From a virus, in the IMG/VR virus record IMGVR_UViG_3300025913_000021, positions 64,001-128,000 of that record: a stretch of 64,000 bases of DNA, one strand, 5' to 3'. The notes under the pieces are model-generated. The model had not been told where the DNA came from. It searched no databases and saw nothing but the letters and a program-made list of their open reading frames with translations. Position numbers and translations under genes: made by a program. This document shows, in pieces, positions 1,799 to 27,028 of the stretch. Every line of letters starts with the position of its first letter. Within the stretch, counting starts at the first letter, position 1.

Positions 1799-2193
1799 GC
1801 ACGGTCGCCACTCCGACTGACGTGAGCCTTGCGCACTGCTCGTGCAGCTCGTGCACTAGGAGGTGGAACGAGTTGAAGTTCACGCGCGGCCACACTCGCG
1901 TCAACGGCCAGTACCAGTGCCCGGGTTACCTCGACCAGGACCGGATGTGCCTGGCCCGCTTCAACACCCCGGGCGGTTTGCGTCGCCACATGAAGAAGCA
2001 GGGGCACGGCGAGCCGTACTTCCGCTACGCCCGTCACCTGTCGAAGGAGTCGCTCACCTGCCAGACCTGCGGCTTCGTGCCGTGGGAGCTGGCGGACAAC
2101 CCGCGCAAGGGACTCGTGGATCACCGACGCAAGCGGCACCGCCTGGAGTACATGCGCGAGCGCAGGCCCTACACGATCGAGGAGGAACCCTAG
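1795..2193 (+). CDS. C2H2-type zinc-finger protein; ends YTIEEEP
   Basis: CPGY...C...F...GLRRHMKKQGH and CQTC...GLVDHRRKRH. Confidence 0.7.
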   Translation: MSTVATPTDVSLAHCSCSSCTRRWNELKFTRGHTRVNGQYQCPGYLDQDRMCLARFNTPGGLRRHMKKQGHGEPYFRYARHLSKESLTCQTCGFVPWELADNPRKGLVDHRRKRHRLEYMRERRPYTIEEEP

Positions 2194-2364
2194 ATGATGT
2201 CGCAGTCGCAGTACGACCACCTCAAGGCCAACGAGGAGAAGTTCTTCGAGCTGATGAACGGCGACCACAGCCGCACGCTCGACGAGTACCTGACCGAGTA
2301 CCGCTACCGGGATCGGATCTACGACGAACTGGTTGCCGACATGGGTCTGGAGCCCGTCGAGTAG
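2194..2364 (+). CDS. small hypothetical protein
   Basis: ATG directly follows the upstream TAG; GAGGAGG RBS. Confidence 0.6.
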   Translation: MMSQSQYDHLKANEEKFFELMNGDHSRTLDEYLTEYRYRDRIYDELVADMGLEPVE

Positions 2365-2366
2365 CC

Positions 2367-2684
2367 ATGATCGAACACGGTTCCAACCCCGAGGGTCAGC
2401 ACATCGCTCGCGTCGGGCGGCTCATCCTCATCGTGGAACAGACGCCCGTCTATAACTTCGGGATCGGAGACAAGATCGGCTGGGGTGAGGACCGCGAGCA
2501 CTGGCTCGGCACCATCGTCATCAGCGAGCGAGACACGATCAGCATGGACGGGGACCTGTCCTGGCACCTGGCCTGGGTGAAGGATGGAGACCCTGCTACG
2601 AAGTACCACTGGCGGGGACGGACCACGGTTCGGGACACCCGCTGGTTTCCCGACGACGTGTACGAGATCGAAGAAGTGCCATAA
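2367..2684 (+). CDS. hypothetical protein; ends YEIEEVP
   Basis: ATG 2367 in the ORF frame ending 2684; typical codon usage. Confidence 0.65.
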   Translation: MIEHGSNPEGQHIARVGRLILIVEQTPVYNFGIGDKIGWGEDREHWLGTIVISERDTISMDGDLSWHLAWVKDGDPATKYHWRGRTTVRDTRWFPDDVYEIEEVP

Positions 2685-2749
2685 CCGAACAAGCACAGCT
2701 ACACTGACTCCACTCGCGGGGAGACCCGCCCAAGCCCAGGAGGCTCAGC

Positions 2750-3775
2750 ATGACCGTGAAGAACTACGCCGACGCCGCAGCCAAGCTGCCGGACGGCTAC
2801 TTCCTCGGCCAGATCGTGTCGTTCACGATCACCGAGGCCGACGTGAACCTGGACGATCTGCGCAAGCAGATCAACGACCTGGGTCTGCGTGACGAGACCC
2901 TCAAGAAGCGGCTCCGTCCGATCGACGCCTTCAAGAAGGCGTGCAACGACGTGGCCACGAAGTTCACCAAGACGGTGGACGCGCAGCACTCCTTCATGGT
3001 CCGGCCGGTCGGCCAGGACGCACAGGAGAGCCACCGGCACATCGTGTTCGAGCGCGCGATCTTCAAGACCGGCCAGAAGCGTCGCGTCGTGCACGACACC
3101 GTGTTGAAGCTGATCTACAACCGGGGCTACCGGGACAAGGACAGCAACGTGGTGGACGACGGCATCTACGTCGAGCCGGTGTACGTGCCGGGCCTGAGCC
3201 TCACCGCCGAGGAGCAGGGCTGGCTCGACACCCAGGTCGGCGAGGAGGGCGTGCACCTCAAGGACCGCTACGAGCACTACTCGACGCATCTGGACAGCCA
3301 CGGCGTCCGGACGTTCGTGCGCGAGTACCTCTACATGCTCGGCGCGATCAACGTGAAGGGCAACGGCGGCGGGCTGTACTTCGTGCAGCAGAAGCACGTC
3401 GAGGAGCTGCGCGACCTGGCCTCGCTCGTCAAGGGGATCGGCTCGCAGATGCACCTCATCCCGTTGCTCGACATCGTGGACCAGCGTGACATGCTGGCCG
3501 AGGCGTTCATCGCCGACACGATGGACGAGATCCGGGCGCAGTCCGTCGAGATCGGCAAGATCCTCAAGGACCCGACCCGCACCATCACCGAGGCAACCTA
3601 TGACGCCTACGCGGCGAAGGCGGCTGCGCTGATCGAGAAGGCGCGCGAGTACCACCAGTTGCTCGACCGCAACCTCGACACGGCGAACTTCGAGCTGGAC
3701 ATCTTCACGAAGAAAACGCTCAAGCTCACCAAGCGCATCCGCCGCCCGAAGTCGCTGGGCGATGGAGGTAAGTAA
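2750..3775 (+). CDS. conserved phage/MGE protein (DUF6744/DUF3150-like)
   Basis: 341 aa, AGGAGG RBS; LGxIVxFTI...DAFKKA...GGGLYFV pattern; family call from memory. Confidence 0.55.
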   Translation: MTVKNYADAAAKLPDGYFLGQIVSFTITEADVNLDDLRKQINDLGLRDETLKKRLRPIDAFKKACNDVATKFTKTVDAQHSFMVRPVGQDAQESHRHIVFERAIFKTGQKRRVVHDTVLKLIYNRGYRDKDSNVVDDGIYVEPVYVPGLSLTAEEQGWLDTQVGEEGVHLKDRYEHYSTHLDSHGVRTFVREYLYMLGAINVKGNGGGLYFVQQKHVEELRDLASLVKGIGSQMHLIPLLDIVDQRDMLAEAFIADTMDEIRAQSVEIGKILKDPTRTITEATYDAYAAKAAALIEKAREYHQLLDRNLDTANFELDIFTKKTLKLTKRIRRPKSLGDGGK

Positions 3776-3777
3776 CC

Positions 3778-4044
3778 ATGTCGAGCACCGCGTCCCGCGC
3801 GCCCGCCGATTCCGACGGGCGTGTGGGACGCCGACCTGCCCCTATCCGTAGCGACCCGCACTTGTTCCGGCGCGACAAGAACGGGATGGTCAAGCTCAAG
3901 ATCAACCTCTCGCCGGAGGAAGCAGCTCTGATCGAGGAGGCTGCCAACGGCACGCCCCTGATGGTGTACGTCCATCGCGTACTGATCGACCGCGCCCGGT
4001 TCCACGCCCGGCGCTCCATTCAAGACGCTGCTCCCGAGGAGTAG
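3778..4044 (+). CDS. small DNA-binding protein (possible ribbon-helix-helix)
   Basis: VKLKINLSPEEAALIEEAA...LMVYVHRVL strand-helix-helix pattern; GGAGG RBS. Confidence 0.45.
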   Translation: MSSTASRAPADSDGRVGRRPAPIRSDPHLFRRDKNGMVKLKINLSPEEAALIEEAANGTPLMVYVHRVLIDRARFHARRSIQDAAPEE

Positions 4045-4063
4045 CCCCGGCCCAAGGAGGCCA

Positions 4064-4627
4064 ATGGACGACATCGAGAGACTGTTCGCCGACATCACAC
4101 CGGAGGACTTCCACCGAGACACCAGTGCCATCGGAGACCTGCGACTCGGCCCGCCGCACGACGAGCTGTTCGACCGCTTCGTGGACGACCTCGTGTTCCT
4201 GGCAAAGGAACGGGCGTCCAAAGACGGTGAGTTCAACCCGTTCGCCGTGCTGCGCAGCGAGGACCGACAGCGAGTGTTCCTCGCCGACGGCGACGAGACG
4301 CCCGACGCCTGGGCCGCTCGCCTGCACCGCGAGGCGAGTGCCATGCAGGCCGTGTGGTTCTACGTCGCCCTGCTCTCACCCGGCCGCGTGTACGAGGGCG
4401 ACCGACCCGACACGATCGAGCGCACCGAGCAGGCGATCGACGCCGCTCTGGATGACGGTCGCCTCAGTCTCGGGCTCGCATGGCTGGCCGCTCGCATCGA
4501 CGGCACGACTCGCGCTGGACTGATCGACATCATGGCCGACGGCAAGCCCGGCGACTGCACCGAGGGCGCGCTCGACGCCGACGACAACCCGTTCGTGACC
4601 GTGCTGGGAGGTGACCGTGCTCTCTGA
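4064..4627 (+). CDS. hypothetical protein
   Basis: AAGGAGG RBS, 187 aa. Confidence 0.75.
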   Translation: MDDIERLFADITPEDFHRDTSAIGDLRLGPPHDELFDRFVDDLVFLAKERASKDGEFNPFAVLRSEDRQRVFLADGDETPDAWAARLHREASAMQAVWFYVALLSPGRVYEGDRPDTIERTEQAIDAALDDGRLSLGLAWLAARIDGTTRAGLIDIMADGKPGDCTEGALDADDNPFVTVLGGDRAL

Positions 4628-5129
4628 GGAGCAGGTCAGAGAGATCTTCTACGAGTACCTGCCCACGTCGATCGGCGTGATGACCATCGACCGCGACACG
4701 TTCGTGGGGCAGGCACGCAACCACCCCTACGTCGGGCTCCAGATTCAGATGGGCGTCTACACCGAGGAGAACCTGGCGCAGGACTTCCTGTCCCCGGCTC
4801 GTGCCCATCCGCAGGTCCCGCTCCAGGTGATCTGCATGGAGGTGTTCGAGGCGATCCTCGAAGGCATCCCCGACGAGATCGCGGCCGACTACGTGCGGCA
4901 CGTAGCCGCGCACGAGGCGCACCACTTCCACACCCACCACGAGCCGGTCAGTGCTGCCGACCATGCACGCAACGAGCTGTCCTGCGTGACCGCGCTCAAG
5001 GAGAAGCACCCGGAGCTGGACAAGGCCGTGCAGTACGTCGAGACCAACTCGCCGGTCTACCGACGGGTGTACGGCCGTCTGGATGAGATCAAGAAGAACC
5101 TCCAGCAAGCAGGAAGGACGAAGCAATGA
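4611..5129 (+). CDS. hypothetical protein with HExxH motif (possible zincin metallopeptidase)
   Basis: VAAHEAHHFH followed by a downstream E (RNELSC). Confidence 0.5.
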   Translation: MTVLSEEQVREIFYEYLPTSIGVMTIDRDTFVGQARNHPYVGLQIQMGVYTEENLAQDFLSPARAHPQVPLQVICMEVFEAILEGIPDEIAADYVRHVAAHEAHHFHTHHEPVSAADHARNELSCVTALKEKHPELDKAVQYVETNSPVYRRVYGRLDEIKKNLQQAGRTKQ

Positions 5130-5359
5130 GCGAACCGCATCCGCTCTACCCGGAGCGTCACGTCAAGACGATCACCGTCCGTGGCGTGGACATGCCGGGC
5201 CTGTTCACGGGCCCGGCAGCGATTTGGACGGGCGGCAGTTCTCCTCGGGTCATCGGCCCGTTCGAGGACGTGCTGGCCGCGCAGCAGTACATGGCTCGCA
5301 GCCCGCACGCCAGCACCGGCCAGGTGTTCCCCATCGACCCACCGGAGGTGACCGCGTGA
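5126..5359 (+). CDS. small hypothetical protein (VIGPFxDxxAA motif)
   Basis: ATGA overlap; shares motif with 1634..1798. Confidence 0.6.
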   Translation: MSEPHPLYPERHVKTITVRGVDMPGLFTGPAAIWTGGSSPRVIGPFEDVLAAQQYMARSPHASTGQVFPIDPPEVTA

Positions 5360-5667
5360 CCACGCACCGTGTCGCGGACGAGATCGAGACCGACGAGGAC
5401 ATGCCCAGCCCGCGCGAGCAGGTCGAGGCCCTGGCCAAGACCGGAGCGAGCGTGTCTGCGGCCTGGGTGCTCCAGAACCTGGAGGCGATCGTCGGGGACC
5501 GCTTCGACCTGCCACGGCTGGCGCTCTCACCGCTCGCTCCCGAGGACGAGTACCTGTCCAGGGAGGCGGACGAGATCGCGCGGAGGAAGGCGCGGGAGCA
5601 GGCGCTCAAGCCCGCGCCCGGGGCCAAGCCCGTTCGCAACGGCTCGAAGGACATCACCGTCACCTGA
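5356..5667 (+). CDS. hypothetical protein
   Basis: GTGA overlap, GGAGG RBS. Confidence 0.6.
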   Translation: MTTHRVADEIETDEDMPSPREQVEALAKTGASVSAAWVLQNLEAIVGDRFDLPRLALSPLAPEDEYLSREADEIARRKAREQALKPAPGAKPVRNGSKDITVT

Positions 5668-5679
5668 CGGGAGGTCACC

Positions 5680-6783
5680 ATGCACACCATGCCGATCCCG
5701 GTCATCCCGCTCTCGATGTTCGAGCCCGAGCGGGATGCACCGGGCGACACCTTCAACTCGACGTTCGTCGAGGTGCCCGATCGGATCACGGTGGAGATCG
5801 CTCCGCCGCCCGTCGAGCACTTCGTCAACTCGTCCGAGGTCGCACCGCGCTACGTCGAGAACTGGGACGCCTTCATCGGCCAGGAGGCGGTCAAGGACGA
5901 GCTGAGCGTCTACATCGACGCACACTTCACCAACTGCGAGCGCCTGCCGCACATCCTGCTCGCGGCGACGACGCCCGGTACCGGCAAGACCACGCTGGCC
6001 CGATGCATCGCCGACGAGATCGAGCAGCGCATCGTCATGCTCGTGCCGCCCTTCAAGCCGGAGGCGCTGTACGAGGCGGCGATGTCGATGAAGGAGTTCG
6101 AGATCCTGTTCGTCGATGAGCTTCACCGGCTCGGCGAGCACGGTCCCGCAGCGGCCGAGAACCTCCTGCACATGCTGGAGGAGCACGTCCTGTACCTCAA
6201 CGGCCAGGTGATCGGGCTGGAGGACTTCACCTTCATCGGTGCCACCACTGACGCTGACAAGCTGCCCGAGGCGGTGCTGGATCGGTTCCCGGTGCAGCCG
6301 TTCTTCGAGCCGTACAGCCACGCCGACATGGTGCGGATCGTGCACAACTTCTGCCGCTACTACCACGTCACGCTGCTGCCCGGCACGATGGTGACCCTGG
6401 CCAAGGCGAGCAGGGGCACGCCTCGTATCGCACGTGGCCTGGTCGAGGGTGCGAAGGCACTCCAGACGGCTCGCGGTCGTGCGGTCACGGGCGAGGAAGT
6501 CCTGGCGTGGAAGCGCTACGACCCGGACGGCATGACCCGCCAGCACAAGAACTACGTGCTGGTGCTCTACCAGCTCTGCGCTCAGCCGGGCAAGAACGGC
6601 ATCGAGTACCGGGCTGGCGAGGAGACGATCGGGACGCTGCTGCGCGAGGGCAAGCGCGGCGTCGCCCGCATCGAGCGCTTCCTCATCGAGAAGGGCTTCA
6701 TCATCAAGAGCGGTCGCGGTCGGGTGCTCACCCAGCGTGGCATCATGGCCGCTCGCCGCTACGAGCAGGAGGGATTCCGATGA
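5680..6783 (+). CDS. ruvB: RuvB-like AAA+ ATPase (Holliday-junction branch-migration helicase family)
   Basis: FIGQ, PHILL, Walker A PGTGKTTLA, Walker B LFVDELHRL, FTFIGATT, LDRF Arg finger, SRGTPRIA sensor II, C-terminal E-x-FLI-x-x-GFI...GRGR winged helix. Confidence 0.88.
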   Translation: MHTMPIPVIPLSMFEPERDAPGDTFNSTFVEVPDRITVEIAPPPVEHFVNSSEVAPRYVENWDAFIGQEAVKDELSVYIDAHFTNCERLPHILLAATTPGTGKTTLARCIADEIEQRIVMLVPPFKPEALYEAAMSMKEFEILFVDELHRLGEHGPAAAENLLHMLEEHVLYLNGQVIGLEDFTFIGATTDADKLPEAVLDRFPVQPFFEPYSHADMVRIVHNFCRYYHVTLLPGTMVTLAKASRGTPRIARGLVEGAKALQTARGRAVTGEEVLAWKRYDPDGMTRQHKNYVLVLYQLCAQPGKNGIEYRAGEETIGTLLREGKRGVARIERFLIEKGFIIKSGRGRVLTQRGIMAARRYEQEGFR

Positions 6784-7121
6784 TCGTCCAGCGCAAGGTC
6801 TGCGACCTGTGCTACCACCGCGACGGCGACGAGGGCGTGGACGCGATCGTCACGCGCACCGTGACGGTGGACAAGCGCACGGTCGAACTGGACCTGTGCG
6901 GTCCCGACGACGCCGTGCTGAGTCAGGGCGTGGCCATGTTCTTCGAGGCCGGTCGCCGGGCGCGCAGCAAGCGCCCGGCCCAGCCGAAGGAACCGCCCAC
7001 GCCGTTGCCCGTCGAGGAGCCGACCTGCTCCTGCGGACGCACCTTCGGCACGCAGCGTGGCCTGAACCGGCACATCACTGCGTGCCAGGACGGCGACGAG
7101 ATCCACCGGGTCGCTGCCTGA
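6780..7121 (+). CDS. Lsr2-like N-terminal domain fused to a C2HC zinc finger
   Basis: TVTVDKRTVELDLC...FFEAGRR resembles the Lsr2 dimerisation domain (GLDGVTYEIDLS...WVAAGRR); C-terminal CSCGRTFGTQRGLNRHITAC. Confidence 0.6.
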   Translation: MIVQRKVCDLCYHRDGDEGVDAIVTRTVTVDKRTVELDLCGPDDAVLSQGVAMFFEAGRRARSKRPAQPKEPPTPLPVEEPTCSCGRTFGTQRGLNRHITACQDGDEIHRVAA

Positions 7122-7465
7122 TGCCCCGCATCGACGAAATGTGGGCATGGGTGTCCTCGGACGAGGGCGGCGAGGGTGTCCTCGCCGCCCCGATCCCGGG
7201 GCTCGGCAACATGCCGCTGGTCGGTGCCGACCGAGCCCGCATGCTCTCCTACGCGGGCATCGCCCGGCAGATGGCGAACATGTTCGGAGTCGAGGTCAAG
7301 CTGGTCCGCTTCACGACCCGCGTGGACGTGGAACGGATCACCCCGGAGGTCGTGACGGCGGACCTGCCGCCCATGCCGGAGGGGATGCCCGCTCGCATGG
7401 AGGAAGCGATCACCAACGCCGCCCGCGAGGCGACACGGAGGGAGCACGATGAGCGCCCAGAGTGA
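7121..7465 (+). CDS. hypothetical protein
   Basis: TGATG junction; typical codon bias. Confidence 0.65.
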   Translation: MPRIDEMWAWVSSDEGGEGVLAAPIPGLGNMPLVGADRARMLSYAGIARQMANMFGVEVKLVRFTTRVDVERITPEVVTADLPPMPEGMPARMEEAITNAAREATRREHDERPE

Positions 7466-7721
7466 CAAACAGATCCGGGTCGCCGTTGCCGACGCGCAGC
7501 AGCGCCTACGGACCCTGCTCGACCGCTTCGCCCCGCCCGGTGCGAGCTGGGAGGACTACCCGTCGATGAACGCGGACTTTCTCCAGCACCTCAAGTACGA
7601 CCTCGTGAACCTGTCCCTAGCGATCGAGTCCCGCATCCAGGAACTCGCGCCGTGGGAACCGATCGAGTTCGGCACGACGTACTCGCCGATCGAGACCAAC
7701 GTCCAGGCTCCCCCGTCGTGA
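7449..7721 (+). CDS. hypothetical protein
   Basis: GGAGGGAG RBS, 90 aa. Confidence 0.6.
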   Translation: MSAQSDKQIRVAVADAQQRLRTLLDRFAPPGASWEDYPSMNADFLQHLKYDLVNLSLAIESRIQELAPWEPIEFGTTYSPIETNVQAPPS

Positions 7722-7863
7722 GCATCGAGGAGGACTGGATCAAGGAGCCATGCTCGTTCTGTGGTGCCGCTCCGAACCAGCCGTGCATGGGGCCGGGCGG
7801 TCGCCGTGCACGTGAAACCCACTCCGCCCGTGTCCTGCTAGCGAAAGCCAAGAAGGGAAACCG

Positions 7864-8631
7864 ATGAGCATCAGTTTGGAAAAGCGCGTCGAGGCCGCCG
7901 CCGTCTCGCTCCAGAAGATCGCGGCCGACAGCAAGATCGACCTCGGTGACGTGTGCGCCCAGGTCGATGTCGCGATCGACTACTCCGGCTCGATGGGTGG
8001 GCGGTACCCACACGAAGTGCAGGAGGCGGTCGAGCGGATGCTCGCGCTGACCCTCACCGGCCTGGACGACGACGGCGTGGTGCCGATCTACCCGTTCAGC
8101 AACAAGCTGCACGACGCCGACGACCTGACCGCCGCGAACTACGTCGGCTGGGTCGAGCGGTTCTGCCAGCGCAACCGCATGGGCGGCACCGCCTACGTGC
8201 CATTCCTGGAGAAGATGCTCGGCAAGAAGAAGCGCTTCGGCGGCAGCAACGAGAAGGACCAGCCGCCGTTCTTCCACATCGTGTTCACCGACGGCGAGCC
8301 GACCGACTCCAAGCGGTCGATCGAGAAGCACATCGTCGAGGCGCGCGAGCGGCCGCACTTCATCCAGTTCGTGCTGCTCGGCCGCGACCCGGAGGGCCGG
8401 GCGTACCTGGAGCACCTCAACAACCACCTCACGCAGCCGGACCCGAAGAACTGCCGCACGTGCAAGGAGCTGGGCACGCAGGCGGCAACGGCGGGCATCG
8501 ACAACGTGGGTCTGACGGTCTACGCCGACCGCCCGCCGACCGACGACACCGGCTTCTTCAACGACACCATCCGGGAGTTCTTCCTGGACTGGCTGCCCGC
8601 TGCTCGCCAGAAGGGCTACACCACGCGGTGA
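7864..8631 (+). CDS. von Willebrand factor A domain protein (TerF-vWA-like)
   Basis: MIDAS DYSGSM, GGT, VFTDGEP, LDDDG, FIQFV, IDNVG. Confidence 0.85.
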   Translation: MSISLEKRVEAAAVSLQKIAADSKIDLGDVCAQVDVAIDYSGSMGGRYPHEVQEAVERMLALTLTGLDDDGVVPIYPFSNKLHDADDLTAANYVGWVERFCQRNRMGGTAYVPFLEKMLGKKKRFGGSNEKDQPPFFHIVFTDGEPTDSKRSIEKHIVEARERPHFIQFVLLGRDPEGRAYLEHLNNHLTQPDPKNCRTCKELGTQAATAGIDNVGLTVYADRPPTDDTGFFNDTIREFFLDWLPAARQKGYTTR

Positions 8632-14969: not shown

Positions 14970-15305
14970 TTGGCCAGTAGCGACATCACCGGAGACCCGA
15001 AGTTCCAGGAGTTCGCCGAGAGGGCGATCACCAAACTGGTGCCGATGGTGGACGAGTCGGCGTACTGCGTGGCGCTCGTGCCGCGCAAGCCCGAGGACTT
15101 CAACGACATCAAGTTCTGCGTCGAACTCGGCATGATGATCATGATGAACAAGCCCATCGTGTTCGTCATCGCGCCGGGCACCAAGGTCCCCGAGAAGCTG
15201 ATCAAGGTGGCCGACCGGATCATCGAGCTGGACACCAACGACGCGAAGTTCATGGCGACCCTGGAGGAGACGCTCCAGGAGCTGACCGTCGAGCTGGGGC
15301 TGTGA
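14970..15305 (+). CDS. hypothetical protein (possible Rossmann-like, nucleoside deoxyribosyltransferase-like fold)
   Basis: DIKFCVELGMMIMMNKPIVFV resembles the ExGxAxxxxKPI motif. Confidence 0.4.
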   Translation: MASSDITGDPKFQEFAERAITKLVPMVDESAYCVALVPRKPEDFNDIKFCVELGMMIMMNKPIVFVIAPGTKVPEKLIKVADRIIELDTNDAKFMATLEETLQELTVELGL

Positions 15306-15506: not shown

Positions 15507-15728
15507 GTGAGTGACGGCGGCGAGGAGCTGCTGACCGGCGTGATCGCCGGGTCGCTCTCGCAGCTCACAGGCGTCAGCTTCCCTATCAAGATCAAGGCCG
15601 TGAACGTCCTCACCGACGCGAACGGCGACTACCGACGGGTGGTCGAGGTCGAAATGGCCAGCGGGACGTACTACGTCTCAGTCACGCCATACGATCCCGA
15701 GACCCCCGTCATCGAGGAGGAACCGTGA
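15507..15728 (+). CDS. hypothetical protein; ends PVIEEEP
   Basis: ORF within the overlapping gene chain. Confidence 0.6.
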   Translation: MSDGGEELLTGVIAGSLSQLTGVSFPIKIKAVNVLTDANGDYRRVVEVEMASGTYYVSVTPYDPETPVIEEEP

Positions 15729-15956: not shown

Positions 15957-16601
15957 GTGGTTGATCTCCCGGATGGGATGCCCGTCGGAATCGCCAAGCT
16001 GCCGCTGAACAAGGTCGGCTACCCGGTGCCGTGGTTCGTGTGGACGAACCCGGACACCAACGAGCCCGACTTCCGCGTCGTGAAGCCCGGCGCGATCCGA
16101 GCCGCGCTCACGCAGAACCTGTGCTGGATCTGCGGCGAGTCCATGATCGGCACCCAGGCGTTCGTCATCGGCCCGATGTGCGCGGTCAACCGCACCAGCG
16201 CCGAGCCGCCCTCGCACCTGCTCTGCGCGCGGTGGGCGGCTATCGCCTGCCCGTTCCTCGCCCGGCCGGAAATGGTCCGGCGTGACCACTTCGACTTCGA
16301 GCACGTGGGCATGGCGGGTGAGGCGATCCTGCGCAACCCCGGCGTGGGCCTGGTGTGGCCGACACGGCGCGGTGAGTGGTCGGTGTTCCAGGTACCCAAC
16401 GGCATCCTGTTCCAGATCGGTGAGCCCGTCAGGGCCCCGGAGTGGTACGCCCACGGTCGGGTCGCCACCCGCGAGGAGGCCGAGCACTCCATCGACACCG
16501 GCCTGCCGTCGCTGCACAAGATCGCAGACGAGGAAGGGCCGGACGCCCTGGAGGAGCTGGACCGGCTCGTCGGCGTGGCTCGGACGTTCCTGCCGGTCTG
16601 A
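15957..16601 (+). CDS. conserved Cys-rich hypothetical protein
   Basis: YPVPWFV, LCWICG, EPPSHLLCARWAAIACPFL. Confidence 0.75.
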   Translation: MVDLPDGMPVGIAKLPLNKVGYPVPWFVWTNPDTNEPDFRVVKPGAIRAALTQNLCWICGESMIGTQAFVIGPMCAVNRTSAEPPSHLLCARWAAIACPFLARPEMVRRDHFDFEHVGMAGEAILRNPGVGLVWPTRRGEWSVFQVPNGILFQIGEPVRAPEWYAHGRVATREEAEHSIDTGLPSLHKIADEEGPDALEELDRLVGVARTFLPV

Positions 16602-16882
16602 TGACCGAGCGGAAGCGGCGGCGACTCACCGACTGGGACGCGATCCTGCGCAACCTCCGCCTCGGTGACCTGCGCTACCGCTACTACACGAACACCGATC
16701 GGATCGCGCTCTATACGACCGTCCGTCTGTATGAGGGCGGGGACTACCTGGCTGCCCTGGTCGAGCGAGACGGGACGGTCCTCATGCGAGCCGAACGGCC
16801 ACTGGCCCGCGAGGTGCGCGACCTGTGCCGCATGTGGTCGAAGGGCTTCGCTGTGGCGTACGAGATCAAGGAGGAGCCGTGA
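16601..16882 (+). CDS. hypothetical protein; ends YEIKEEP
   Basis: TGATG junction. Confidence 0.6.
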   Translation: MTERKRRRLTDWDAILRNLRLGDLRYRYYTNTDRIALYTTVRLYEGGDYLAALVERDGTVLMRAERPLAREVRDLCRMWSKGFAVAYEIKEEP

Positions 16883-17593: not shown

Positions 17594-17601
17594 GGGGAAC
17601 C

Positions 17602-18516
17602 ATGACCACCACACCGACTGACACCGACGCCACCACCGAAACGAACGAGTGGCAGTTTCCGATCGAGGCCGTGCTGGAGTACCACAAGGCCCGCATCGCA
17701 GGCAACGAGGACCACGTGCCCGCGATGGTCGAGGCGTGGGTCGAGGGCGAGGGCCCGGTCTGGAGCGCGATGGTCGCCGACGTGGGCGAGTCCAGCCCGC
17801 GTGACTGCGCCCTGTTCGCCGCGTCGATCATGTCCAGGATCACCGGGGCCGACTACATCCTGTTCTGCGTGGACACCCACATGAGCCACTCTCAGGTGAA
17901 TCCGACGACGGGCAAGCCGTGGGCACCGGGCGAAATGCAGCGCATGTGCGACGAGGAGGGGTACTGCGACACCGGCAACATCCGCGACAACCTCATGGTC
18001 GCGATCGTGCGGCGCTCCGACGCGAAGATCTACATGACCGGCATCCCGTACCACTTCCACAAGGGCGAGGTCATGTACTTCGACCCGCAGCCGCCGATGG
18101 ACGAGTGGAACGACGAGGGCGGCGTGAAGCAGATGGGCGGCACCATCCCCGACACCCTGCGCCAGGTCATACAGCAGCCGCCGCTCAGCGAGCAGCTCAC
18201 GCAGATGGGTGCGTACGAGGCGATCGGCTTCGACGGTCCGTCGAACATCACCCGCCTGCACCAGATTCTGGCGGGCATCCGTGTCATGGGGAAGGTCGCC
18301 GTGGACACCGGGTGCGAGGGTCCGATGTTCCTGCACATGATCCCGACGAGCACCGACGAGGAGCGTCAGATCATGGACGACTTCTCCAAGCGCGACGACA
18401 TCACCAACCTGGCCGAGTACGGCGCGGAGGAGCCTGAGCCCTCGCTCGCGGAACAGATGGGCGCTGCTCCCACCACGATCGAGGAGGAGCCCGGTGACGA
18501 ACCAGCCCAGCCATGA
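17602..18516 (+). CDS. hypothetical protein
   Basis: GGGGG RBS, 304 aa; TTIEEEP lies near the C-terminus. Confidence 0.7.
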   Translation: MTTTPTDTDATTETNEWQFPIEAVLEYHKARIAGNEDHVPAMVEAWVEGEGPVWSAMVADVGESSPRDCALFAASIMSRITGADYILFCVDTHMSHSQVNPTTGKPWAPGEMQRMCDEEGYCDTGNIRDNLMVAIVRRSDAKIYMTGIPYHFHKGEVMYFDPQPPMDEWNDEGGVKQMGGTIPDTLRQVIQQPPLSEQLTQMGAYEAIGFDGPSNITRLHQILAGIRVMGKVAVDTGCEGPMFLHMIPTSTDEERQIMDDFSKRDDITNLAEYGAEEPEPSLAEQMGAAPTTIEEEPGDEPAQP

Positions 18517-19382: not shown

Positions 19383-19384
19383 CC

Positions 19385-20443
19385 ATGCCCGCTACCGACG
19401 CACTTCACGTCCGCACGCAGGTTGCGGAGCAGCTACAGGGTCAGACCTTCCGCACGATCATCGACGCCTTCGTGGGTGATGACTTCAATCGGATGCGCGG
19501 CCAGAAGCAGAACGTCCACGACACCAGAAGCACGGCCGGGGCGATCAATGCGAACCAGGCCCCGGCGTTCCGCGCGGAGGCGTTCGCCAACGCGATGTCC
19601 ATCGCCGAGACCTTCTACCTCAGCCCGGAAATGCACGCGATCTGCCAGGACGCCAGCCAGGCCGAGGACTTCCCCGAGGACGAGACGATCCTGCGCGAGG
19701 ACCCGCCGAGCGAGGCCGGGTTCCTGTTCCTGCCCGCGCGCTTCCGCATGATGGAACTGCGCGGCCGACTGATGATCGCGCACGCCGTGGTGTGGATCAA
19801 CAACAAGGTCTGGTGGCTCTGCGACCGGCGTGACCCGGACGACGAAATGAACGTTGAGCTGAATGCGGCGTACGGCGGACACGGTCAGGTTGGCCTGCCA
19901 CGCTACGACCTCATGGCGGTGAGCAGCTTCAAGTGGGGTGAGCCCATGCCGAAGATGATCACCTTCGAGAAGGGCGTGCTGCCGACCGATGCCAAGGTCG
20001 AGTTCAAGGACGTGCCGTTCGAGGGTGGCACCCGGCGCATCCTGTTCACCGACGCGCTCGTCCATCCCGGCCTGAGCAAGCCGCAGGCCACGGTGTCGCC
20101 CGAGCTGCGGTTCCTGCTCACCGTCTGGCGCATGATGCAGCAGACGATCACCGACGTGGTGGACGAGTACCCGGACAACAAGGCCGTCCGTCGCTACGCC
20201 GACCGCGCCGGGATCAAGGACCAGCGCATCCGCGTGATTCAGCTCCGTCGCCGCGAGAGCCACCAGACCGGCCAGGGCTCGCCGCTGACCGTGCGCTTCG
20301 TCGTGCGTGGCCACTGGCGACGCATCTGGTGCGGCCCGGCCGAGAACCGCTACCAGCGCGCGATCTGGATCCACCCGCACCTCAAGGGTCCGGAGGGTGC
20401 CCCGCTGATCCACCGCGAGAAGATCAACGCCCTGGTGCGATGA
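19385..20443 (+). CDS. conserved phage protein with C-terminal VRGHWR motif
   Basis: RFVVRGHWRRIWCG...IWIHPHLKGPEGAPL. Confidence 0.75.
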   Translation: MPATDALHVRTQVAEQLQGQTFRTIIDAFVGDDFNRMRGQKQNVHDTRSTAGAINANQAPAFRAEAFANAMSIAETFYLSPEMHAICQDASQAEDFPEDETILREDPPSEAGFLFLPARFRMMELRGRLMIAHAVVWINNKVWWLCDRRDPDDEMNVELNAAYGGHGQVGLPRYDLMAVSSFKWGEPMPKMITFEKGVLPTDAKVEFKDVPFEGGTRRILFTDALVHPGLSKPQATVSPELRFLLTVWRMMQQTITDVVDEYPDNKAVRRYADRAGIKDQRIRVIQLRRRESHQTGQGSPLTVRFVVRGHWRRIWCGPAENRYQRAIWIHPHLKGPEGAPLIHREKINALVR

Positions 20444-20655
20444 ACGGACACGTGGTCGTTTTGATCGTGGCCGTCGTGGGACTCGTGACGGTCTGTGTGT
20501 TCATGTTCCTCATGGTGCGCGCGAGCAGGAACCTACGGATCTCGGCCGAGAACCTCCAGCATGCGGCCGAGGACTATCGCGACTCGATGGACGACCTGAA
20601 CACCTTCCTGTTCCGGTCGGTCAACGGCGAGCACACCGTGGAGGAGGAGCCCTAG
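20440..20655 (+). CDS. small membrane-anchored protein; ends HTVEEEP
   Basis: N-terminal TM helix followed by a coiled segment. Confidence 0.65.
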   Translation: MNGHVVVLIVAVVGLVTVCVFMFLMVRASRNLRISAENLQHAAEDYRDSMDDLNTFLFRSVNGEHTVEEEP

Positions 20656-20871
20656 GTGGACTACTCGGTGGCGCTGTTCGAGGCTGCTCACGACCCGCAC
20701 GTATGCCTAAGGCGATTCGCCAACGGTGACATCGTGACGCAGCACTGGCCGAAGAAACGAACCGACGAGCGGCCGACCTGCCGGTACTGCCTGATGCTGA
20801 TCAAGAAGGTCGAAACGCATGCGGCGTCTCGGTGGGCCGCTGTCGAGTACATCGTGGAGGAGGAGCCCTGA
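20656..20871 (+). CDS. small hypothetical protein; ends YIVEEEP
   Basis: GTG directly follows TAG; CRYC. Confidence 0.6.
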   Translation: MDYSVALFEAAHDPHVCLRRFANGDIVTQHWPKKRTDERPTCRYCLMLIKKVETHAASRWAAVEYIVEEEP

Positions 20872-21407
20872 TGGGCATGCTCGCGCGCCTGGAGGCGCTG
20901 TACGCCGAACTGCCCGAGGTGGCCTGCCAGGGCAAGTGCCAGACCTGCTGCGGACCCATCGACATGAGCCCGGGAGAACGACTGCGCATCCGTTCCCAAG
21001 GCGTCGAGATCCAGCCGATGACCAGCGCGCGAGTGCGAGCCTGGGAACGCCAGCAGAAGTACGACGACGACGGCGAGCCGCTGTGGTGCAACGCGCTGAA
21101 CCTGGACACCGGGCTGTGCGAGGTCTACGAGATCCGTCCGATGATCTGCCGCCTCTGGGGTACGGGCAGCGGGGAAATGGCCTGTCCGCACGGCTGTAAG
21201 CCCACCAGACGGCTCTCGGACATCGAGACGATGCAGTTCCTGCTCCGGGCTATGGCGGCGGGTGGTGGCTTCACTGAGGCCGAGTACGCCCGCATGCAGG
21301 CACTGTTCGACGACCCGGAAATGGCCCGGCGCACGACCGAGTACATGGAAGCTGACCCCGAGACCCGACAGCGGATGCGCGACGAAATGGATGGGCGGCT
21401 GAACTGA
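20871..21407 (+). CDS. YkgJ-like Zn/Fe-S cluster protein, paralog 2
   Basis: CQGKCQTCCGP...CNAL...CEVYEIRPMICRLWG...CPHGC. Confidence 0.82.
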   Translation: MGMLARLEALYAELPEVACQGKCQTCCGPIDMSPGERLRIRSQGVEIQPMTSARVRAWERQQKYDDDGEPLWCNALNLDTGLCEVYEIRPMICRLWGTGSGEMACPHGCKPTRRLSDIETMQFLLRAMAAGGGFTEAEYARMQALFDDPEMARRTTEYMEADPETRQRMRDEMDGRLN

Positions 21408-21602
21408 ATGTTCTACTGCAAGGACTGCGCCGACATCACCGGCTGGCCCGAGCTCGGCTTCTCGGTCGGCCGGTGCGAAATGTGCGAGCGGGGCAGCATG
21501 CTGTGCTCCGACGTGCCGAGCAAGTACCTCTCCATCCCGACCCAGGAAATGCACACGCGCATCCAAGGTCTCAACCCACATCGGATCCAGGAGGAGCCGT
21601 GA
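21408..21602 (+). CDS. small Zn-ribbon protein; ends HRIQEEP
   Basis: MFYCKDC...GRCEMC...CSD. Confidence 0.65.
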   Translation: MFYCKDCADITGWPELGFSVGRCEMCERGSMLCSDVPSKYLSIPTQEMHTRIQGLNPHRIQEEP

Positions 21603-21931
21603 CCGACGAACTGCTGCCAGTCAGGTCGAGAGGTAGCTATCCGAGCCACAACGGTCACGTCATGGGCAGCACCCGGCACAACGCGATCTTCTGCATCACG
21701 TGCATGAACGACCTCGGTCTGGAGCAAGGCCCCGCCGAGATCCTGGACCGATGGATTCACCTGGAGATCGAGGAGGACGAGGTTCCTCGCGCTGACGTGG
21801 AGTACGTCGTCTATCGCGCGCGGGACTTCATCGAGCGAGGTCAGGAAATGGACGCGTGGCGATTGCTGGATGAAATGACCCGCCGCATCGGTCGCAGCAA
21901 GGCCGGTCCCAACATGAAGCCGGGCGAGTAG
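21599..21931 (+). CDS. hypothetical protein
   Basis: GTGA overlap with AGGAGGAG RBS. Confidence 0.6.
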   Translation: MTDELLPVRSRGSYPSHNGHVMGSTRHNAIFCITCMNDLGLEQGPAEILDRWIHLEIEEDEVPRADVEYVVYRARDFIERGQEMDAWRLLDEMTRRIGRSKAGPNMKPGE

Positions 21932-22187
21932 TGGACGCCTACGAGCGCGGCCTACGTGCGGAGATCGCCAACGTCCAACTGGAGCGCGAGCGCGACGAGG
22001 CCCTGGCCGAGAACGAGTACATGCTGCGCATGCTGTGCGAGGCACTGGGTGAGCAGTACGAGTTCCCGTCGGACAACCCGAGTGAGCCGCCCTACCGGAT
22101 GGACTGGCCTCGGATTCTCGGTACGGTGCGTGGTCGAACACGGGTCTGGTCGGACCTGATGAAGCGAGCAGAGGAGGTGGATGCAGA

Positions 22188-22991
22188 GTGGCTACGCGAG
22201 TACCGGGGCCGGTCCTCACGGACCCGACGGGACTGATCATCGCTGGGGATATTCACTCCGACCCACGGCACCTGGCGTACCTGTACGAGGTCGCCGTGCA
22301 GACGCGCTGCGAGGCGATCGTGGTGGTCGGGGACTTCGGTTACGTCGAGCACTACGACCAAGGCGCTTTCCTGGCAGTCGCCGAGGAAGGATTCCGACTG
22401 ACCACGGAGCACGGGTGGCCGGTCGAATTGCTGTGGCTGGACGGGAACCACGAGAACCATCCGCTGCTGCACGAGAAGTACGGCCCCAACTCACCCATCC
22501 ACGAAGCCAGCGAAGAAGGCTTCTGGAAGATGCGAGAAGGCGTTCACTACATCCCACGGGCCACCCGCTGGAATTGGGCGGGCATCAGTTTCCTCGCCCT
22601 CGGTGGGGCGTACTCGATCGACAAGATGCACCTGTTGAAGTTGCAGCGTCAGGACGGTGGTGAACGGTGGTGGCCCACCGAGGAGATCACCGACGATGAC
22701 GTGGCGAAGTGCCTGTCGGATCGGTCCCCCGTGGACGTGATGCTCACGCACGATAAACCACGCGACGTACAAGTACCGTGGTCCCGCCGCGACATTCCGT
22801 TAGCACTGCCCAACCAGGACAAGATCCAACGGGTGGTGAATGCTCTGCACCCGAAGTTGCTGGTGCACGGGCACCTGCACATCCGCTACCAAAGCAAGGT
22901 AGACCGCACCATCGTGGAGGGATTGGGATGCAACCCGCACAAGGACTCCGACGACCCGGCGGATTCCTGGATAAGGCTGTCGCTCGTCTGA
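22188..22991 (+). CDS. calcineurin-like metallophosphoesterase
   Basis: GDIH, VVGDFG, DGNHE, THD, HGHLH motifs. Confidence 0.9.
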   Translation: MATRVPGPVLTDPTGLIIAGDIHSDPRHLAYLYEVAVQTRCEAIVVVGDFGYVEHYDQGAFLAVAEEGFRLTTEHGWPVELLWLDGNHENHPLLHEKYGPNSPIHEASEEGFWKMREGVHYIPRATRWNWAGISFLALGGAYSIDKMHLLKLQRQDGGERWWPTEEITDDDVAKCLSDRSPVDVMLTHDKPRDVQVPWSRRDIPLALPNQDKIQRVVNALHPKLLVHGHLHIRYQSKVDRTIVEGLGCNPHKDSDDPADSWIRLSLV

Positions 22992-23094
22992 CCCGCTGCC
23001 AGTGCGGCTGCGAGAAGGCCGAGCACGAGAACCGAGGCTCGTGCGCCACGTGCGGCCCGAAGCGCTGCCCTGAGTTCCGAGGAAGGTGGTTGCC

Positions 23095-23475
23095 ATGACA
23101 CTGCCTGACAAGCTGCTCGGCCCCGAGGGCTACGACCCGATGTGGGACGACGTGCGCAAGGTCGGCGACACCGCGCTGTACTTCGACCGCCAGGGCCAGC
23201 CGATGACCCTGCGCCAGTGGGTGACCGGCATCGAAACGGACGAGTATCGCTTTCTCAAGCGCACCCGCGTGGGCGAGAGCATGATCGTCACCGCCTGGAA
23301 CGGCGTCAACGACGGCTGGCCCGACCCCGAGGCGCAGATCTTCGGCACGATCGAAATCCGTGGCCAGGGCGAGAACGTGACCTATCACGACGAGGAGACC
23401 GACAGCACCGAGGCTGCGGCCCTCGCCACCCATGATCGCCGGGTGGAGGAACTGAGGAAGGAACTGAACCCGTGA
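23095..23475 (+). CDS. hypothetical protein
   Basis: YFDRQGQPM...IFGT pattern. Confidence 0.6.
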   Translation: MTLPDKLLGPEGYDPMWDDVRKVGDTALYFDRQGQPMTLRQWVTGIETDEYRFLKRTRVGESMIVTAWNGVNDGWPDPEAQIFGTIEIRGQGENVTYHDEETDSTEAAALATHDRRVEELRKELNP

Positions 23476-23795
23476 ACGACGCGACCGAACATCCGAACTG
23501 GACCCCGCAGGACGACACCACCGCCTGCCCGTACTGCGGCAAGCCCAACAACGCCTGGTCGTCCACCGACGGCGCGGCCGTGGAGCGTCCGCAGGCTGGT
23601 TCGCTGAGCCTGTGCTTCATGTGCGGCGGGCTGTGCGTCTACGAGGAGACCGACGGCAAGCTCTCGCTGCGCAAGACCACCGCCGAGGAGGCGAAGGCAT
23701 GGGAGAGCGACCCGTTGGTCGTGCGCACCCGCAAGATCATCAGCTACACGGAGAGCCCGAACCTGGCTAGCAGCTTCCTGCTGATGGACCAGTGA
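23472..23795 (+). CDS. Zn-ribbon hypothetical protein
   Basis: CPYCG...LCFMCG. Confidence 0.6.
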   Translation: MNDATEHPNWTPQDDTTACPYCGKPNNAWSSTDGAAVERPQAGSLSLCFMCGGLCVYEETDGKLSLRKTTAEEAKAWESDPLVVRTRKIISYTESPNLASSFLLMDQ

Positions 23796-24297
23796 TCGAC
23801 CCGAACATCACGACGGCCGACGGCAAGCCGGTCGCCTTCCACGACTTCAAGCCCGAGCAGTTCCCGTTCCGCGTCCAGTTCATCGACAACGACACCGAGG
23901 AACTGCTGCACGAGGTCATCGTGCGCGGGATCAGCCACATGGAGGTCCCCGGCTTCGCACCGCGTCGGGTGCGGGTCGAGATCACCTACCCGAACGGGTT
24001 GCAGTACGTCGAGGGACCACCAGGATCGGGACTGAGCGAAATGCGCCAGGTCCCACCGCCGCGCCTGTGAGCTATCGCGACACCGAGTGCGATGCGTGCG
24101 GCAAGCCGTGGGACATCCACCTGATCATGGGCTGTGTGCACGAGCACTCCGGTCACGTGCGGTTCTGTCGAGAGCACCGCTCTCGGTTGGTCGCCACTGC
24201 CGATCAGTACCTGTGCTGCACCCCCTGCATCAACGATCACCCGTGCCGCACGCACGTCGTGCGCGTCATTGAAGATCGGTCCCAGGCCGCGTGACCC

Positions 24298-24325
24298 TTG
24301 CGCTGTTCGGCTGCGCGTCTATATT
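24298..24325 (+). promoter_or_regulatory. putative housekeeping-type promoter for the sigma gene (leaderless)
   Basis: TTGCGC-N16-TATATT, with ATG 24333 seven nt downstream and no SD; the spacer contains TGTTCGG. Confidence 0.5.
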
Positions 24326-24332
24326 CCGTGTT

Positions 24333-25112
24333 ATGGCGGTGGGAAAGCATCAGCTAACGGACGGTGAACTCGACGAGCAGTGGGCCCTCCTCAAGGCCGG
24401 AGGACCACGCGCTTCGACCGCCAGGGACCGTCTCGTGCTGCACTGGCGTCCGTTCGTCTGCTCGATCGCCAACCACATCGGCACCCGACTCCCGGCCCAC
24501 GTGGACAACGAGGACCTGATCAGCTACGGGATGATCGGGCTCCTGGACGCCATCGAGAAGTTCGACCCCGGCCGTGGCCTCCGCTTCAAGACCTACGCCG
24601 GGAAACGGATCAGCGGCCAAATCTACGACGAGCTGCGCAAGCTCGACTGGGTTCCGCGCTCGGTGCACAGCCAGGTCAAGGAGGTCACCGAGACGGTGAT
24701 CGACCTGGAGCGCAGGCTCCAGCGTCCCGTCTCCGATGCCGAGGTGGCCAAGGCTGCCGGACTGAGCCGCGAACAGGTCGCTGACGCCCGCAGCGAGCAG
24801 TCCTACATCAGCGTCATGGCGCTGGACGCCCTGCTGGACAACAACGTCGGGGACGAGACCCTCTCGCTGGCCAGCCAGCTCTACGACCGCACGCAGTCAC
24901 CCGACCAGGACTTCGAGGTCGAGGGCATCAAGGCTCTGATCGCCGGGGCTATGGCCAACCTGGGTGAGCGCGAGGCGCTGGTGCTGGCGCTGTACTACAT
25001 CGAGGGGCTGACGCTCTCCGACATCGGTGGGCTGCTCGGCGTCACTGAGTCTCGCGTGTGCCAGATGCATACCCGCGCGATGGTCGCAGTCCGCGAACGT
25101 CTCGCCGCCTGA
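24333..25112 (+). CDS. FliA/WhiG-family (sigma-28) RNA polymerase sigma factor
   Basis: LPAHVD.EDLISYGMIGLLDAIEKFDP.RG..FKTYA..RI.G.I.DELRKLDWVPRSV; region 4 LYYIEGLTLSDIG.LLGVTESRVCQMH. Confidence 0.93.
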   Translation: MAVGKHQLTDGELDEQWALLKAGGPRASTARDRLVLHWRPFVCSIANHIGTRLPAHVDNEDLISYGMIGLLDAIEKFDPGRGLRFKTYAGKRISGQIYDELRKLDWVPRSVHSQVKEVTETVIDLERRLQRPVSDAEVAKAAGLSREQVADARSEQSYISVMALDALLDNNVGDETLSLASQLYDRTQSPDQDFEVEGIKALIAGAMANLGEREALVLALYYIEGLTLSDIGGLLGVTESRVCQMHTRAMVAVRERLAA

Positions 25113-25232
25113 ACCGGATTTGGCTGCTCGTCCGTCCGCACTTCACGCACGCGGGCGGCATCGCGTGGTAGGCGTCCCAGGCGTGATCGCAAGGCACGAC
25201 GGTCTGCCAGAGCCGTCGCAGGGCGTGCTTGA

Positions 25233-25682
25233 TCACTTCGCTTCGGGGCTGAGGTACTTCGCCAGGCGCGGATCCGGTGGCGGTAGCAGGCCGTGCTTCT
25301 TCTCGCAGTCGTAGGCGAAGTAGGAGTTGCGGAAATCGGCGATCAGATGCAAACCGACGGCCGTCGTATTCGGCGCGAGCGGGATCGTCCCCACGTCGTG
25401 ATAGAGGTTGCAGTTCGCCTGGTCCCCGTGCTGCACGGTGCTCTTGACCCGGGAAGCCTCGGTGGCGTTGCGGAACACGAGGATCGCCACGATCACCACC
25501 AGCACGAGGATCGCCCCGTCGCGGACCTGGCTGCGGATGCGCTCGCGGCGCACCCTGATCTGAGCCTCCTCGCGGGCCACCTTCGAGGAGACCAGCGCGG
25601 TCGCCTCCAGGCGTGCCTTCTCGGTGACCTGGGGCACTCCGATGTCGTCCGGGCTCATGGCGACCTCCTCTGGTAGTCCCAT
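25233..25682 (-). CDS. membrane-anchored hypothetical protein
   Basis: One TM segment (AILVLVVIVAILVF); counter-oriented within the plus arm; GCCGAACA upstream. Confidence 0.6.
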   Translation of the reverse strand: MGLPEEVAMSPDDIGVPQVTEKARLEATALVSSKVAREEAQIRVRRERIRSQVRDGAILVLVVIVAILVFRNATEASRVKSTVQHGDQANCNLYHDVGTIPLAPNTTAVGLHLIADFRNSYFAYDCEKKHGLLPPPDPRLAKYLSPEAK

Positions 25683-25931
25683 CGGCCGTTGCCCCTTCGC
25701 GTCTGACGAGCTAATGTTCGGCTTGTGATAAGTCGCTAACCTGAACCCCAGGTGGTGCCGCGCTGAATGCCGCCGCACCCACACGCATCAGTACCCGCAG
25801 GATCGCAACCGTATCGGTGAGCGCGCCTGGTGCTACGTGATCAGCGAGGAACCCGAGACCCCCGATGAGTGGTCGGCGTTCCGAGATCAGGTCTACCGAG
25901 TCGGCTGTCGAGGCCCGCGCGAGCGTGCAGC

Positions 25932-26231
25932 ATGAGCGAGCCGACCGAGGTCGAGAAGCTCCAGCGCGAGATCGACTCACTGCGCGACCAGCTCGCCGAC
26001 GCCAACGCCAGAGTGCAAACGCTGAGGTGGCAGAACCAAGCACTGGAATCGGTTCACCTCTCGCCCGAGCAGAAGGCACGCTCGCACCAGAACGCCGAGG
26101 TCTACTACTGGATCGCCAAGTGCCAGCGGCAGCGACGGGCGATCAACCACATCCAGCGCAAGGGTTGGTACCCACCGGAGTACGTGATCCGCGAGGAGGA
26201 GACTCCGTGGGAGCTGGATCAGACCGCGTAG
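25932..26231 (+). CDS. coiled-coil hypothetical protein
   Basis: EVEKLQREIDSLRDQL; internal YVIREEETP. Confidence 0.55.
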   Translation: MSEPTEVEKLQREIDSLRDQLADANARVQTLRWQNQALESVHLSPEQKARSHQNAEVYYWIAKCQRQRRAINHIQRKGWYPPEYVIREEETPWELDQTA

Positions 26232-26305
26232 ATCGCCACGACCAGCAGGGACATGCCGAGCACGACTAGGACGACCCCGAGCTTCTGATCATGTCCGAGC
26301 GCCAT
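26219..26305 (-). CDS. 28-aa hydrophobic peptide (MALGHDQKLGVVLVVLGMSLLVVAIYAV)
   Basis: Read by eye; single TM; fills the gap between plus-strand genes. Confidence 0.4.
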   Translation of the reverse strand: MALGHDQKLGVVLVVLGMSLLVVAIYAV

Positions 26306-26387
26306 CGGGCGAGCCGATCACGGATTCGGCCGCTCGTCCAATCGGAACGTCTTTCGGCTCAGCTCAAGGTCGCCTAGGTTGTTCGGC

Positions 26388-26774
26388 ATGCCCGCGCCCG
26401 AGGAGCCCGATCCGCTCGACGACATCAGCACTGCTGCGCTCAGGGCGGCGCTGGAGCGTCGGGGGTATGTCACCCTCACGGCGAAGTCCTACAAGGCCGC
26501 ACAGCGCCGCCAGGGGATCGCGCAGAGCCGCATGGCGTGGGCCGAACGAGAGGCCGAGAGCGCTCGGAGCTGGGCCTACGACTGCCTGGCCGAGGAGCGT
26601 CGTCTGCACGCCCGACTGAACGAGATCATCGCCCTGGCGACGCAGCACGGGATGACCACGGAGGATCTCGTCCGCTTCAACGAGCAGCTCGGACTTCGGG
26701 GCGCTCTGCCACCGACCACCGTCGTGCCCGAACTCCCAGGGGCCGTCACTCATCGCATCCCGGAGCAGCCGTGA
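26388..26774 (+). CDS. hypothetical protein; ends HRIPEQP
   Basis: TAGGTT -10-like box 7 nt before the ATG (leaderless). Confidence 0.6.
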   Translation: MPAPEEPDPLDDISTAALRAALERRGYVTLTAKSYKAAQRRQGIAQSRMAWAEREAESARSWAYDCLAEERRLHARLNEIIALATQHGMTTEDLVRFNEQLGLRGALPPTTVVPELPGAVTHRIPEQP

Positions 26775-27028
26775 CCCTGCCACAGGACGACGCCGACCTG
26801 TCCCCGCAAGTGCTGCGGGAGTACGCGATCCAATGCCTGCGCCAGGCTGGGACCTTCTCGTACCTGCCGTACACCCCCGCAGCGCCGGTCGCGCAGCCGG
26901 GCTTCACTGCACCGCAGCCGCTCCCGACACCGGATGCGCGCCCGAGCGGCATCCTGTACGCGCTCCAGGGCCTGCTGGCCATGCAGATCGCGAACTCGAT
27001 CACGCACGTCATCGAGGAGCACCCATAG
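26771..27028 (+). CDS. hypothetical protein; ends HVIEEHP; last plus-arm gene
   Basis: GTGA overlap; stop is followed directly by a hairpin. Confidence 0.6.
   Translation: MTLPQDDADLSPQVLREYAIQCLRQAGTFSYLPYTPAAPVAQPGFTAPQPLPTPDARPSGILYALQGLLAMQIANSITHVIEEHP

Follow-up and report, generated by a model that had tools for sequence, protein, structure and literature searches.

The window analysed here, 64,000 nt in length, comprises bases 64,001–128,000 of IMG/VR record IMGVR_UViG_3300025913_000021, a 149,260 bp contig of 66% GC from rhizosphere metagenomes that represents an uncultured tailed phage. A simple gene caller of our own, with which starts are approximate, recovered 273 genes in this phage genome (labelled G000 in cross-genome comparisons), 195 in the accessory region and 78 in a replication/virion block. 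A number of the accessory genes in the window end in a similar heptapeptide, in which Tyr or His is typically followed by x-[IV]-x-E-x-P and the stop codon; this C-terminal peptide is termed here the type-1 tag. A preliminary description listed nine such copies, each as a 24-nt segment, and all nine translate as listed at matching coordinates (Table 1).

The tag is far more frequent than the composition of gene ends predicts. A six-frame scan of the genome found 35 stop-anchored [IV]xExP sites, 34 of them on the coding strand of an open reading frame (ORF) and one a chance antisense match. Tags end 33/273 called genes, compared with a mean of 1.9 and a maximum of 9 in 20,000 trials in which all gene ends were shuffled by column, a procedure that preserves position-specific composition and that driven by ribosome-binding sites (RBSs). 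When an aromatic residue is also required, 28 are observed, against a mean of 0.3 and a maximum of 5 in the same shuffle. Ile or Val stands at position −5 in 33 of the 35 genes that end in ExP. Approximately 11 further tags in the genome carry a short extension beyond the Pro, and tagged genes number 45/195 in the accessory region, on both strands; the replication/virion block has none except one weak match, which was excluded. Roughly one in four small accessory proteins bears the tag. It had been reported from the plus arm only, with no copy on the minus arm of the window, but the minus strand of the left arm, beyond the window, has 15 stop-anchored copies, and the minus arm of the window itself has one weak extended match. 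The left arm also contains an array in which most gene junctions bear a tag. Of 34 tags, 6 use the rare Pro codon CCA, compared with 7% genome-wide. Genes for tRNA-Pro(TGG) and tRNA-Trp(CCA) are present at 27238–27400 (−) of the window.

The carriers are small (median 92 amino acids, aa) and unrelated to one another, and some are membrane-anchored; only three have clear Pfam matches (SLOG, WGR and DUF7448). They are real genes, since 23/26 of the single-nucleotide polymorphisms listed for carriers in a second strain are synonymous, compared with an expected 33%. Selection acts on the peptide and not on the DNA. The rates at which tags share a codon, set against those given by genome codon usage, are 0.74/0.88, 0.87/0.92, 0.83/0.82 and 0.56/0.81; codon sharing is no higher than codon usage predicts. 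Third codon positions of the tags track genome codon bias, with no DNA conservation beyond it, and tags of orthologues in G000 and the relative L003 use different codons at 15/41 identical residues. Residue changes among tags are conservative: in 67/78 tags Ile is preceded by V, L, T, I or M, and in none (0/78) by Ala or Gly, though each of these is one base away from Val; Y, H or F occupies the aromatic position in 51/78. When tags are defined without using Glu, 20/20 contain it, and no Asp forms were found; between 0 and 19 residues follow the Glu. At untagged coupled gene ends, the frame of Shine–Dalgarno (SD) motifs varies (10, 17 and 19 in the three frames), but every tag is in frame, which supports the suggestion of a portable peptide tag that RBS function does not account for. 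A DNA weight-matrix test of frame is confounded by codon bias and is given little weight. A start-associated DNA element or cassette junction would show nucleotide conservation beyond the encoded peptide, and none was found in any frame.

Relatives were gathered via DUF6744, capsid and MoxR homologues. The type-1 tag is found in L003, L004, L005, L054, L125, L001, G008 and G007/L018/L128, the last three of which appear to be a single phage lineage. In these the core I-x-E persists, followed by 1–19 residues after the Glu and often lacking Pro; a long form appends a short amphipathic helix, with consensus I-x-E-E-P-D-L-x-D-L-L. Fixed spacing between motif and stop holds in the lineage of the phage but not across the clade, and stop anchoring and terminal Pro, which had been taken to define the motif, do not do so. 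The core is aromatic-hydrophobic-I-x-E, probably as an extended strand. As relatives keep this core with variable tails, the Pro-stop form is a lineage-specific trimming, and together with the SD overlap it is an overlay that gives the DNA a second use. The existence of orthologues that lack the tag, a point raised in the preliminary description, was confirmed in more distant relatives, in which they stop before it. Within the clade, 11/24 tag-containing families mix tagged and untagged members (by regular expression, a few false matches included), and individual carriers have gained or lost their tags. When viral contigs were scanned for the DNA pattern, the tag turned up only in two fragments of the same phage family. 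Literature searches, with most subscription papers outside their coverage, yielded no description of such a tag, which is real and set at the level of the peptide, and which seems to be undescribed.

The complete sister phages G002 and G003 have capsid proteins 68–71% identical to that of the phage, and the type-1 tag is almost absent from them. They carry instead a second C-terminal peptide, found de novo and termed type 2, an acidic amphipathic helix with consensus T-D-E-E-I-x-x-A-I-x-S-I. Its profile scores on 25 and 15 C-termini in G002 and G003, respectively, from which the profile was itself seeded, and the tag is also present in L127 and L007. The two types are nearly mutually exclusive, and the type-1 long form has no profile similarity to type 2. 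In one carrier family, type 1 is found in five lineages and three show type 2. The presence of alternative tags on shared carriers suggests, without proving, that both serve the same job. Neither tag was seen in G001, L006 or G010, and profiles of both against PDB sequences gave chance-level matches only; a likeness to Pup or to ubiquitin-interacting motif (UIM) helices is unsupported.

Table 1. Type-1 tags and related features of the window (positions are those of the window)
Feature	Position	Strand	Gene	Remarks
Tag and stop	2170–2193	+	1873–2193	106 aa; weak C2H2 zinc finger; orthologues in L005 and L054 bear the long-form tag
Tag and stop	2661–2684	+	2367–2684	105 aa; GAA-GAA-GTG, without SD; 65 nt to next start; L003 orthologue keeps the tag in different codons
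Tag and stop	15705–15728	+	15507–15728	73 aa; tag retained in L003, L004 and L054 orthologues
Tag and stop	16859–16882	+	16601–16882	93 aa
Extended tag	18472–18492	+	17602–18516	304 aa; 7 residues beyond Pro; not in the preliminary description
Tag and stop	20632–20655	+	20440–20655	71 aa; N-terminal membrane segment
Tag and stop	20848–20871	+	20656–20871	71 aa
Tag and stop	21579–21602	+	21408–21602	64 aa; two CxxC pairs; G003 orthologue ends in the helical type-2 tag
Tandem tag-like pair	26718–26774	+	26388–26774	128 aa; 26718–26738 internal, 26751–26774 terminal
Tag and stop	27005–27028	+	26771–27028	85 aa
Weak extended match	35172–35192	−	35163–35381	Near end of gene; uncertain member
DUF6744 gene	2750–3775	+	2750–3775	Clade marker; near MoxR(-VWA) genes in other elements

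Three further stretches of the window resemble tags. An uncalled ORF at about 25730–25935 (+) contains a perfect internal tag followed by 26 residues; gene 30842–31363 (−) has an internal tag-like stretch 66 residues before its end, in an acidic region that homologues lack; and the tail of a dCTP deaminase (29666–30256, −) resembles the type-2 helical tag, the G001 and G007 homologues being without this tail.

The properties of the tag are those expected if it were a protein-level address carried by many unrelated small accessory proteins, and a single partner probably binds all carriers by it. A candidate for this reader is a MoxR ATPase (L010:10515–11765) encoded with a VWA protein (L010:12024–13973), a pair situated 12–15 kb upstream of the window. 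[quoted passage not shown] Tags of type 2 are concentrated at the VWA gene (12/20, P=3e-6; 6/10, P=0.004), and clustering of tags at this gene was seen in G002, G003 and L125; tags in L125 are found downstream of MoxR-VWA (15/21) and seldom upstream of it (2/26). The L125 VWA protein is type-1-like in its MIDAS-containing part and type-2-like at its C-terminal end, and the tag type of this phage agrees with the former (8/10 diagnostic columns, 479–548) and not with the latter (1/8). Tags as mimics of the VWA C-terminal helix were dropped as an idea, because L125 has a type-2-like VWA end but type-1 tags. Capture of a client by the MIDAS through a single acidic residue is documented for Rea1, with Rsa4 E114 and Ytm1 E80 (PMC6624252), and NorQD is a MoxR AAA+/VWA remodeller in which an acidic client residue lies at the MIDAS (PMC13036017). 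Peptide capture by vWA is a proposed common step of vWA-MoxR ternary systems (PMC7159879), and a CbbQ-type pair on a plasmid acts in anti-restriction (PMC7498323). In this view, the MoxR AAA+/VWA machine of the phage would grip every carrier through its tag, the invariant Glu completing Mg2+ coordination at the VWA MIDAS, and during infection the carriers would serve this ATP-driven remodeller as clients or exchangeable adaptors. Trimming of the tag to Pro in this lineage, with the Glu-Glu codons doubling as the SD of the next gene, would be a secondary use. Taken as a whole this is the best explanation at present, if a tentative one; the identification of MoxR-VWA as the reader is, in itself, somewhat doubtful. 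A broader and rather unlikely form has the carriers as fast-turnover adaptors plugged by the tag into MoxR-VWA or a similar hub that would act on their targets, for example host defence proteins, with tag and reader recoded together between lineages from strand to helix.

Several points weigh against a MoxR-VWA reader. Homologous VWA genes are present at 37 other viral loci, some of them low in GC, on which the gene caller may do poorly; 36 of these loci lack a shared C-terminal motif and the exception is G002 itself. G001 has a type-2-like VWA protein yet no tag in 39 kb, and tags are not enriched near the VWA gene in G000 (9/45, P=0.26). Co-variation of VWA and tag may be plain shared descent, as the tree would allow. 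A single MIDAS would also need to switch from a strand to a helical ligand, for tags without profile similarity. The hub candidates within the window, namely the RuvB-like, vWA-TerF and 2750–3775 (DUF6744) proteins, are weaker than the MoxR-VWA pair, because RuvB-like and DUF6744 genes occur in untagged loci and vWA-TerF is absent from the loci of most relatives. DUF6744 is possibly part of the candidate reader module; its gene has a MoxR ATPase gene as neighbour in Moorella phage MTATph1, and in L052 it lies near MoxR-VWA. The model of the protein is confident (predicted local distance difference test score, pLDDT, 89), and Foldseek found no PDB match. In L006, the RuvB-like gene (L006:12736–14814) is interrupted by a LAGLIDADG domain, probably an intein.

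The host could instead supply the reader, in the form of a chaperone or of a Clp or proteasome ATPase, for which the tag would be a degron, a stabilizing cap or an adaptor tail, with tag types differing because hosts differ. Terminal position and small, early-type carriers suit degrons and adaptor tails, of which ssrA and SspB are examples, and no phage gene is linked cleanly in both directions with both tag types. This is nonetheless an unlikely account: the tag is found only within one phage family, which is unexpected for a conserved host receptor, the PDB sequence matches are uninformative, and acidic or Pro termini generally resist C-terminal proteolysis. A 126 aa YodL-like phage protein (L011:3867–4247) is another putative reader, of type 1, that would anchor or scaffold the carriers. 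The 6/6 type-1 loci spanning the region all have it, and neither complete type-2 genome has a detectable copy. It is strongly conserved (55–95%), and its most distant full-length homologue is likewise in a type-1-tagged phage; in three homologues (L125:14297–14839, P0241 and P0242) a tag-like stretch is fused in frame upstream. YodL domains have been proposed as cytoskeletal anchors (PMC5512222). However, the co-occurrence is confined to one clade, the Pfam YodL match is sub-threshold, the structural model is mediocre with no fold match, and type 2 would be left without a reader; this role is improbable, and no IMG/VR loci with the protein were found. Loading of the carriers into the virion for injection with the DNA, the tag being a signal comparable to encapsulin cargo peptides or to the capsid-targeting sequence of T4, appears equally improbable. 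It would suit small, diverse carriers and the tagged gene that directly follows the capsid gene in G006, and MoxR-VWA pairs are tied to virion assembly in other viruses (PMC7824862). Against this, capsid, scaffold-region and other core or head-module genes lack a terminal tag, some carriers are membrane-anchored, carriers sit in the divergent accessory arms, and capsid proteins remain 68–71% identical between tag types. A T4-type I-x-E prohead-protease site was also considered, and no member of a protease family was recognized among the head-module genes.

Two further explanations place the function in the nucleic acid or its translation. GGAG or GAGG lies within 29/33 tags, 23/33 are coupled to the next start, and a C-terminal Pro slows termination in E. 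coli (PMC3834316), so the tag might be a device or by-product of translation, in which SD overlap and pausing at Glu-Pro-stop aid termination and reinitiation. This leaves the aromatic, hydrophobic and Ile positions, the strict frame and the uncoupled copies unexplained. The copies ending at 2684 and 27028 were described as having no coupled downstream gene; for that at 27028 this is uncertain, because an ATG immediately after the stop opens a 54-codon ORF that the gene caller did not call. The explanation also fails for those relatives in which 14 to several hundred nt separate a core without Pro from the next start, and for the helical sister tag. As the sole cause translation is largely refuted by the variable-tail relatives and very unlikely overall; it probably accounts only for the Pro-stop trimming. 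Least likely is a DNA repeat at gene junctions that serves recombinational capture or shuffling of gene cassettes. The left-arm array and the gain of tags on new carriers, whose spread short homology could aid, are in its favour, but DNA is not conserved past codon usage, the substitution spectrum is protein-like, and a second strain is colinear over the 10 kb array with no tag-to-tag joints, in contigs that drop rare variants.

Short terminal peptides that act as addresses include the ssrA degron, the SSB C-tail, clamp-binding motifs, encapsulin cargo peptides and the T4 capsid-targeting sequence. The phage tag acts like these, in that one short portable end peptide would handle unrelated proteins collectively, but it does not resemble them in sequence, each genome has far more carriers, and two unrelated tags are swapped between lineages; it fits none of the families tested, namely type VII signals, FxSxx-COOH precursors and start-associated DNA repeats. 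The YxxxD/E signal of type VII secretion depends on a helical WXG100-type bundle and tolerates Asp, with no need for Ile or a fixed aromatic alternative. The phage tag has the identical Y-x-x-x-E spacing, but only 1/45 carriers has both the length and the WxG of type VII substrates, which are helical hairpins of about 100 aa with a central WxG, and none has a WXG100 Pfam match. NorQD and Rea1-MIDAS (PMC13036017; PMC6624252) share with the phage a MoxR-VWA pair with intact MIDAS, matched here by an invariant tag Glu, but serve one or two folded clients, and a portable terminal peptide on dozens of proteins is not known there. FxSxx-COOH systems (PMC7159879) also feature small, variable proteins that are encoded near actinobacterial vWA-MoxR genes and whose C-terminal peptide is conserved; they comprise one precursor with a metallopeptidase and often a radical-SAM enzyme at a host conflict locus, whereas the phage has approximately 45 carriers genome-wide with domains of their own. 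The motif of those systems, FxSxx, RxD or poly-acidic on one precursor, differs from that of the phage, where aromatic-hydrophobic-I-x-E is found on unrelated genes, and no metallopeptidase or radical-SAM match was found among the selected genes scanned. The IncC vcrx089-090 anti-restriction pair (PMC7498323) likewise consists of a CbbQ/AAA_5 ATPase of a mobile element and a partner, and acts on host entry; that paper describes neither a tag nor a set of carriers, and gives no Pfam domain for the partner.

Most small phage genes lack known function, and the tag groups a quarter of the accessory proteins of one phage as one functional class, so that a single pull-down could name the reader and the pathway of the tagged proteins. 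Two unrelated tags swapped on the same carriers suggest a tag-reader code that evolves as a unit. Were MoxR-VWA the reader, the occurrence of this little-understood ATPase pair in many mobile elements would have an explanation, and the system could become a source of orthogonal tag-reader pairs for engineering.

Searches of cultured phages gave no near match (best capsid-protein match 45%), and searches of genome contigs for a prophage or host found none. The host is presumably actinobacterial, to judge from a WhiG-like sigma factor, Lsr2 in one relative and the 66% GC. The WhiG/FliA-type sigma factor is encoded at 24333–25112 (+) of the window (NCBIfam E 3e-75) and has homologues in G002, G003 and L006. 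Contigs from RNA runs overlap parts of the left-arm tag array but do not demonstrate transcription. In the relative G006 (L109, about 15090–15262, +) a small tagged cysteine-rich ORF is inserted right behind the capsid gene. A Ku protein (L010:6446–7243) and an ATP-dependent DNA ligase (481–1491 of the window) form a phage-borne end-joining pair that is conserved in relatives. Upstream of genes in both orientations, and in relatives too, the sequence CCGAACA recurs, as does its reverse complement, with sites at 2685–2691 and 26378–26384 of the window and in several left-arm gaps; this repeat is more like an operator than a −10 box.

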